Source: Octopus vulgaris
Taxonomy: Eukaryota
Length of the DNA stretch: 64,000 nucleotides
Reading direction: 5' to 3'
Assembly: GCA_951406725.2 (NCBI GenBank)
Contig: OX597820.1
Location: 73,346,001-73,410,000, forward strand
Part shown: piece by piece, positions 24,832 to 24,907 of the stretch
How the letters are laid out: each line of letters opens with the position of its first letter
Position numbering within the stretch: the stretch's first letter is position 1
Notes under the pieces: generated by a model
The model's input: the letters and a program-made list of their open reading frames with translations, nothing else
The model's database searches: none
What the model was told of the DNA's origin: nothing
Program-made: the position numbers and the translations under genes

Positions 24832-24907
24832 ACCCTTCATCAGTTGTTGGCTGTCTATCTACTTCTCATTTCGAGCATTGAACAACAATATGAGTCTTCA
24901 AAGACAG
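24832..24907 (-). ncRNA. Non-circularly permuted hammerhead ribozyme candidate (family 4)
   Basis: Minus strand: CTGTCT..CTCA-TA-TTGTTG-ttcaat-GCTC-GAAA-TGAG..AGACAG-c-CAACAA-CTGATGA-A-GGGT; all three helices pair; canonical core. Confidence 0.8.

Follow-up and report, generated by a model that had tools for sequence, protein, structure and literature searches.

A predicted, non-circularly permuted hammerhead ribozyme in an abundant animal repeat, likely related to Naiad-type Penelope-like elements

Within a window of 64,000 nt (the whole stretch of DNA analysed here), the minus strand of positions 24907-24832 carries a full set of hammerhead parts in exactly 76 nt, as found by reading the sequence and by a pairing search. 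Our main reading, to which we give a probability of about 0.65, is that this motif represents a decayed copy of an animal repeat with a high copy number, likely a Naiad-type Penelope-like terminal-repeat ribozyme that is predicted to cut RNA, likely by means of two paired copies. Among its blocks, the cut site (S) comes first, GAAA (G) second and CUGAUGA (C) last, i.e., S-G-C, an order which is unobtainable by circular permutation of a type I, II or III hammerhead. The motif is real, a variant of a known ribozyme that probably has its home in Naiad-type elements.

All the motif elements listed by the first-pass annotation, which gave no strand, were recovered on the minus strand (Table 1). P0 and helix I each comprise six Watson-Crick pairs, and helix III comprises four together with A15.1-U16.1. 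CUGAUGA (CUGAnGA) stands directly 3′ of helix I′, and a single nucleotide separates P0′ from helix I′. Across the four distinct sequences of the motif in the window, the H of the cut site is A, U, C and A, GAAA is followed by helix III, and both the A15.1-U16.1 pair and the NUH rule hold. Fold computation on the 24907-24832 motif gives P0 and helix III a pair probability of 0.81-0.90, while the plain fold energy is ordinary (z = 0.48), as expected for a pseudoknotted motif. Rfam covariance models gave no match at gathering score in the whole window, and the 102 matches down to E 10 in 18900-25700 include no hammerhead family.

Table 1. Motif parts, sister motifs and host repeat in the window, with helix lengths of Naiad consensuses parsed by eye from the available part of File S5 (PMC8557442)
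Feature	Positions	Strand	Basis or remarks
Strand X, 5′ strand of helix II (10.1-10.5)	24909-24913	-	Two of five pairs lost in this copy, including G10.1; outside the 76 nt of the first-pass annotation
P0 5′ strand, putative stem I-II clamp helix	24902-24907	-	Pair probability 0.81-0.89
Helix III 5′ strand (16.2-16.5)	24891-24894	-	Pairing search
U16.1 and A17, AUA triplet	24889-24890	-	Cut predicted 3′ of 24889 (24889/24888) by analogy with hammerheads
Helix I strand 3′ of the cut site	24883-24888	-	Pairing search
Helix II 3′ strand (11.5-11.1)	24873-24877	-	Pairing search, alignment test
GAAA (G12-A15.1)	24869-24872	-	Invariant in the alignment of four distinct window sequences
Helix III 3′ strand	24865-24868	-	Pairing search
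P0′ strand (pairs with 24907-24902)	24851-24856	-	Pairing search
Helix I′ strand	24844-24849	-	Pairing search
CUGAUGA catalytic core (C3-A9)	24837-24843	-	Sequence
Extra A and helix II strand of the first-pass annotation	24832-24836	-	Pairing search; weak alternative partner
Sister motif, intact upstream helix II	34791-34868	-	Descriptors
Sister motif, intact, first unit of the 843-nt partial tandem (20236-18940); cut predicted after 19928	19877-19949	-	Descriptors
Sister motif, intact, second unit of that tandem, 99% identical	19034-19106	-	Descriptors
Sister motif, intact, diverged subfamily; cut predicted after 51947	51925-51999	+	Descriptors
Host repeat copy, pseudo-LTR-like, non-coding	24712-25600	-	About 580 nt without insertion; ends approximate; between (TA)n and (CA)n tracts
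Later SINE-like insertion into the host repeat	25124-25433		10-nt target duplication 25114-25123 / 25424-25433
Naiad_Ovul and the preceding element (Obim by order)			II 6 bp, P0 5, III 4, I 6; by eye
Acropora Naiads Amil and Anas			II 6, P0 9, III 12, I 6; by eye
Plae Naiad			II 6, P0 8, III 5, I 6; by eye
Element preceding Plae (2_Movir by order)			II 6, P0 8, III 4, I 4; by eye
EuTe Naiad			II 6, P0 5, III 9, I 6; by eye
One Clytia Naiad (header not seen)			II 4, P0 8, III 4, I 5; by eye
Type-CSG nematode Naiads			2_Nbra and 3_Nbra (adjacent headers); Parc, 1_Nbra, Asuum, Hcon or Hpol (by position); by eye
Partial Naiad parses (three)			Aacu, display ends before X; Esco, helix II 4/5; Smim, S-G-C, helix II ambiguous

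The motif is one of several in the window. An order-blind hammerhead descriptor found five loci, with cores at 24843, 34797, 19883 and 19040 on the minus strand and at 51993 on the plus strand, and all five are in S-G-C order, which bears out the earlier call of a non-circularly permuted hammerhead. In 300 dinucleotide-shuffled windows, the same search yielded 0.12 sites per window over the six orders, 0.023 SGC sites per window and none of the quality of the 24907-24832 motif, and 500 shuffled windows contained no site with helices I and III; a chance origin of the motif is set aside by these shuffles. A descriptor for the split form, in which the helix II strand lies upstream, matches four of the five window loci, the 24907-24832 copy being the miss, and none of the 500 shuffled windows. 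Elsewhere, it matched none of the 120 loci listed (of at least 120) in viral contigs preselected for core words, and none of five metagenome loci chosen in the same way. The generic core pattern, which served as a negative control only, occurs at 120 loci or more in viral contigs, with no folding locus among those listed. The family pattern has no match in viral contigs, and its five matches in metagenome contigs were rejected as chance, helices I and III being present in none. In all four distinct window sequences, every pair of helices I, III and P0 is kept with different letters, and P0 is a conserved helix.

The partner of the strand before GAAA is what sets this fold apart. When all possible partners were searched, the best, in three of the four distinct sequences, was a 5-mer of perfect complementarity situated shortly before P0 (GGCUG twice and GAAGG, with G10.1 first in each), for a chance expectation of about 0.4% within the 6-nt slot. 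In an alignment of only four distinct related sequences, two of them with identical helix II letters, so that shuffle fractions are not to be taken as probabilities, this upstream helix II has 18 of 20 cells paired and four of five pairs changed on both sides; one shuffle in 500 did as well, with 10-40% for slid registers. Both unpaired cells belong to the 24907-24832 copy, at 24913 and 24911. The downstream helix II proposed earlier has 10 of 16 cells paired, which 116 of 500 shuffles equalled, and its energy is -1.5 kcal/mol at 24907-24832 and 0.0 at 34797, whereas the upstream partner scores -4.6 to -6.8. A weak downstream partner is present in all four sequences, with a register that varies from 1 to 5 inserted nucleotides, and the version with a 1-nt insert, itself weak, occurs only in the 24907-24832 copy and at 34797. 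The four contiguous pairs of the annotated GGGT/GCTC helix do exist, but they consist of two G-C and two G.U pairs, require an extra A after CUGAUGA and show no covariation, and this helix II (GGGU/GCUC in RNA) is probably wrong. An uninterrupted block C, with a helix II strand 1-2 nt after CUGAnGA, is therefore not what the alignment returned. Helix II with G10.1-C11.1 can form through the upstream strand at four of the five window loci and in the family majority, and is broken in the 24907-24832 copy, which retains only the weak downstream partner. An additional helix, from the leader preceding X to the tail that follows A9, was sought by eye, with only weak, variable options of 5-6 bp as the outcome.

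Because it lacks two X pairs, including G10.1, the 24907-24832 copy is the most decayed in the window and not the best construct. It had been flagged as the cleanest; a 76-nt construct would omit strand X altogether. The analysis indicates which copy and which boundaries suit test constructs, and the flagged copy is the wrong choice.

Related contigs from four public runs were aligned to 24700-25130 at 80% likeness, comprising 8007, 8952 and 8963 DNA contigs from three organisms and 1283 contigs from a fourth run that is RNA by guess only; among the data sets listed as containing the motif, none is catalogued as RNA. Depth peaks at the motif (24790-24909), summed contig depth being distinct from copy number. 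At 24913 and 24911, the alternative letter makes up 90-98% of depth in all four runs and restores five of five Watson-Crick X pairs; as depth there is about 5% of the peak, with letters from 40 of 97 difference rows listed, this restoration speaks for the nearest subfamily. The helix I pair 24884:24848 is U-A in the 24907-24832 copy and C-G in the family majority (90-96% at 24884, 68-75% at 24848), a swap that could be decay, being unphased and lying at two CpG sites. A head-to-tail joint from 25121 to 24782 occurs in two of the four runs, in one contig each, and loose contig ends in run X22 (guessed to be RNA) extend beyond the SINE-like insertion. A variant at 24900 (35-46% of depth) creates a 12-nt palindrome over P0 and the internal loop (24901-24895 with 24907-24894, minus strand) that would compete with P0; as a dimer signal, this palindrome was set aside, being absent from the sister families.

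The window is animal DNA, cephalopod in appearance and rich in microsatellites and SINEs. Besides the host repeat, it has a sister element at 19.9 kb that forms a partial tandem of 843 nt with (TA)n on either side. Insertion at a (TA)n microsatellite and a partial tandem with pseudo-LTRs, two traits of Naiads and habits of Penelope-like elements, are both present. A 51-nt fragment at 23022-23072 matches the 3′ end of this sister element with 98% identity. Upstream of their T-rich bodies, on the minus strand, the target (25540-25450) and the 19.9-kb element (19480-19395) have in common a CT-rich stretch and, after it, one short word, TCACGTGA, which may mark a promoter or a protein site in the pseudo-LTR. 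Among the 117 of 245 open stretches of at least 60 aa that were scanned with Pfam, there was no GIY-YIG or RT domain, the sole find being a Tc1-type transposase, and the window copies look non-autonomous or truncated. The transposase remains (HTH_SB, HTH_Tnp_Tc3_2, DDE_3) occupy 43702-44726 on the minus strand, with inverted ends near 43438-43682 and 44864-45060. ARAGORN found no tRNA gene in the window. Three other repeats deserve mention. At 49765-50889, a 360-nt tandem repeat of about three units, more than 99% identical, follows a (TA)n tract and could be another Penelope-type partial tandem; the order-blind descriptor finds no hammerhead in it. A short repeat at 1782-1835 and 51279-51330 consists of a hairpin followed by CGAAACGT and resembles a minimal type I hammerhead whose core is altered. 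A 1.2-kb unit is present twice, diverged to 74% (38002-39166 and 39246-40363), with differences that look scrambled, and these copies may be a long-read assembly artefact.

In the available part of the description by Craig 2021 (PMC8557442), Naiads insert at (TA)n, form partial tandems and carry no canonical hammerheads, and some contain a core that fits no descriptor; "HHR_core" and "HHR_half_core" are annotated near their 3′ end without a structure (Methods, File S1 and File S5). Parsed by eye, eight of the 54 Naiad consensuses of File S5, from four phyla, end in the split fold with all four helices and with differing letters (Table 1). The downstream helix II partner is absent, again by eye, from the Acropora, Plae, Movir, EuTe and Clytia consensuses. 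Six nematode consensuses keep an intact block C in the order C-S-G, i.e., type CSG, with helices of 4-11 bp; since type CSG is known from two sequences in the available literature, these six form a ready covariation set. Apart from three partial parses, the remaining 37 were either unparsed by eye or without a core word, in a search that misses words split at a line break; for Darwinula, Ppla, Omin, Dcar, bivalves, hemichordates and fish, the 3′ ends in the available part of the file either yielded no parse or lacked a core word. By eye, the helix I strands of the Octopus Naiad are those of the window copy at 34797. As no Naiad ORF was found among the open stretches scanned, the link rests on the common fold, the flanks and this one shared helix I. 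Against it, cephalopod Naiads are described as old remnants (PMC8557442), yet the window family is abundant. On the basis of these likenesses, the window family likely works like, and derives from, Naiad-type elements.

The order of elements, X-P0-III′-UH-I-II′-GAAA-III-P0′-I′-CUGAnGA, corresponds, as read from sequence, to an SGC/CSG circle whose opening falls between A9 and G10.1, a predicted fold that none of the six permutations in Eckert 2023 covers. In the split-form loci, P0 lies 0-5 nt from X at its start and 0-2 nt from I′ at its end, and so bridges the tips of helices I and II. The rod predicted from P0 and helix III has the cut site and GAAA within its loop; X and the CUGAnGA strand form its tails. 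In the mechanism we propose, P0 would clamp the tips of helices I and II, in the manner of Eckert's interaction helix, and the clamped tails of a second rod would cut the loop of the first, a two-copy action that we hold at slightly better than even odds. The second rod could be supplied within a partial-tandem transcript, by its other terminal repeat, or by a separate transcript, and element RNA would then be trimmed only from tandem transcripts, as has been proposed for dimeric type I Penelope-like hammerheads. Without G10.1 and the second X pair, the 24907-24832 copy would be a supplier of loops with poor tails, likely slow or dead on its own. We give a rather low chance to there being no cutting at all.

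Geometry bears on the number of molecules. A helix rises by 2.8 Å per pair, and a linker spans at most 6.5 Å per nucleotide. By this rough arithmetic, a P0 stacked coaxially in one molecule needs 53-67 Å, versus 52 Å available at 24907-24832 and 39 and 13 Å at two sister copies. The compact coaxial fold suggested by the first-pass annotation is accordingly borderline here (about 53 versus at most 52 Å) and excluded for these two sisters, whereas its other suggestion, assembly from two RNAs, holds up as a serious option. A P0 folded back needs 17-20 Å, which is feasible at 24907-24832 (20 versus 52 Å) and at 34797, marginal at 51993 and, from parses by eye, beyond reach in EuTe, Plae and Acropora, where 0-1 nt separate P0 from helix III. 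A single active molecule requires the two ends of the rod to meet; two copies are the simplest common solution. The same four helices could nonetheless form within one molecule, as a compact double pseudoknot with P0 folded back beside helices II and III, or with P0 melting as an off-switch before the core forms. Linkers of 7 + 8 nt at 24907-24832 and of 5 + 6 nt at 34797 reach if P0 is folded back, helices I and II remain 4-8 bp and can form without threading, and Eckert's SGC and CSG ribozymes cut co-transcriptionally from single-copy templates, with the clamp helix needed (PMC10085705). We nevertheless regard this as unlikely, given a shortest linker of 1 nt at 51993 (13 Å versus the 17 Å needed), the 0-1 nt linkers read by eye in several Naiad consensuses, and a conserved, near-continuous P0-III rod that is hard to reconcile with fraying.

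There is a small chance that the fold no longer cuts and is a hammerhead-derived signal, for example for protein binding or reverse transcription, or that its short helices are due to chance. Activity is a prediction here, the fold energy is unremarkable, and Penelope-like hammerheads are reported as weakly active or protein-dependent (PMC4209133, PMC11167929), but the core nucleotides are invariant while every helix changes letters, the shuffles rule out chance, and the NUH site is in register in all parsed examples. The first-pass reading, an ordinary type-SGC with block C intact, helix II right after CUGAUGA and the 24907-24832 copy active as drawn, has a slim chance: G10.1-C11.1 with one extra nucleotide after A9 is a hallmark of minimal Penelope-like hammerheads (PMC4209133), and the contiguous downstream pairs here have 3-4 bp counterparts in sister copies, but the downstream energies are weak, the register drifts, covariation is missing, and several of the available Naiad consensuses have no such partner.

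A broader proposal, which we hold tentatively and at somewhat less than even odds, is that Naiads in at least four phyla carry active non-circular hammerheads, mostly A9/G10.1-split and acting as obligate head-to-tail RNA dimers, with many thousands of genomic copies in this animal. In the available open-access literature, including the accessible part of PMC13725137, we found neither a Naiad with a permuted hammerhead nor a split at 9/10.1; open-access sources likewise yielded no tested precedent for an A9/G10.1 break, and "type-SGC" appeared as a term in Eckert 2023 only (PMC10085705). The split fold would offer a concrete answer to a published puzzle, that of Naiads without canonical hammerheads and yet with unexplained half cores. 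Non-circular ribozyme permutations, a matter of rare metatranscriptome contigs, would be extended to repeats that abound in animal genomes, and the proposed topology breaks the block assumption that underlies the six-permutation scheme. Genome-wide ribozyme counts made with circular descriptors would miss a large class. If true, dimer assembly could also account for two features of the published SGC and CSG ribozymes, linkers of zero length and slow rates.

Among known systems, the closest in layout are the type-SGC (HRIMA-1) and type-CSG hammerheads of Eckert 2023 (PMC10085705), in which the interaction helix was shown to be required and whose authors also remarked on the geometric puzzle of short linkers. 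Type-SGC shares with the present motif the S-G-C order, the full core, the helix at the tips of stems I and II, the short or absent linker from that helix to helix III and a size of about 80 nt. Unlike in Eckert's types, the helix II strand here lies upstream and block C is broken at A9/G10.1, which the six-order scheme assumed impossible, and both strands connect the clamp helix with helix III. In the available text, Eckert's sequences come from metatranscriptomes and metagenomes, with the genome of a known organism for one GCS candidate only, whereas the present motif belongs to a high-copy animal genomic repeat. Naiads (PMC8557442) have in common with it the position of the motif near the 3′ end of the element, the (TA)n flanks, the partial tandems and, in eight of the 54 consensuses read by eye, the split fold; unlike Naiads, the window repeats show no Naiad ORF in the stretches scanned, the likeness being one of motif and flanks.

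The minimal type I hammerheads of Penelope-like pseudo-LTRs and of non-LTR retrozymes resemble the window family in their terminal repeats, high copy number and mostly solitary, truncated copies (PMC4209133; bioRxiv 10.64898/2026.07.22.740005), and those of Penelope-like elements also in a proposed dimer action, with slow cutting (Cervera and de la Pena 2014, PMC4209133), and in tolerance of one extra nucleotide at 9/10.1. Their order is the circular C-G-S and they dimerise through a palindromic helix III, whereas here helix III is stable (4-12 bp) and copies would meet via helices I and II. The Anolis Penelope-like hammerhead requires a protein for cutting and is dispensable for insertion in vitro (PMC11167929), and one of nine Xenopus retrozyme dimers cut (bioRxiv 10.64898/2026.07.22.740005); slow, protein-dependent or rare cutting in these relatives counts against a large role. 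Lastly, the pseudoknot hammerhead of Zhan 2024 (PMC11300833) also has an extra helix beyond helix II, coaxial with its pseudoknot helix and helix III, and is a guide to the placement of P0; unlike the present motif, it has another connectivity, with A9 joined to G10.1, and forms one compact, fast ribozyme.
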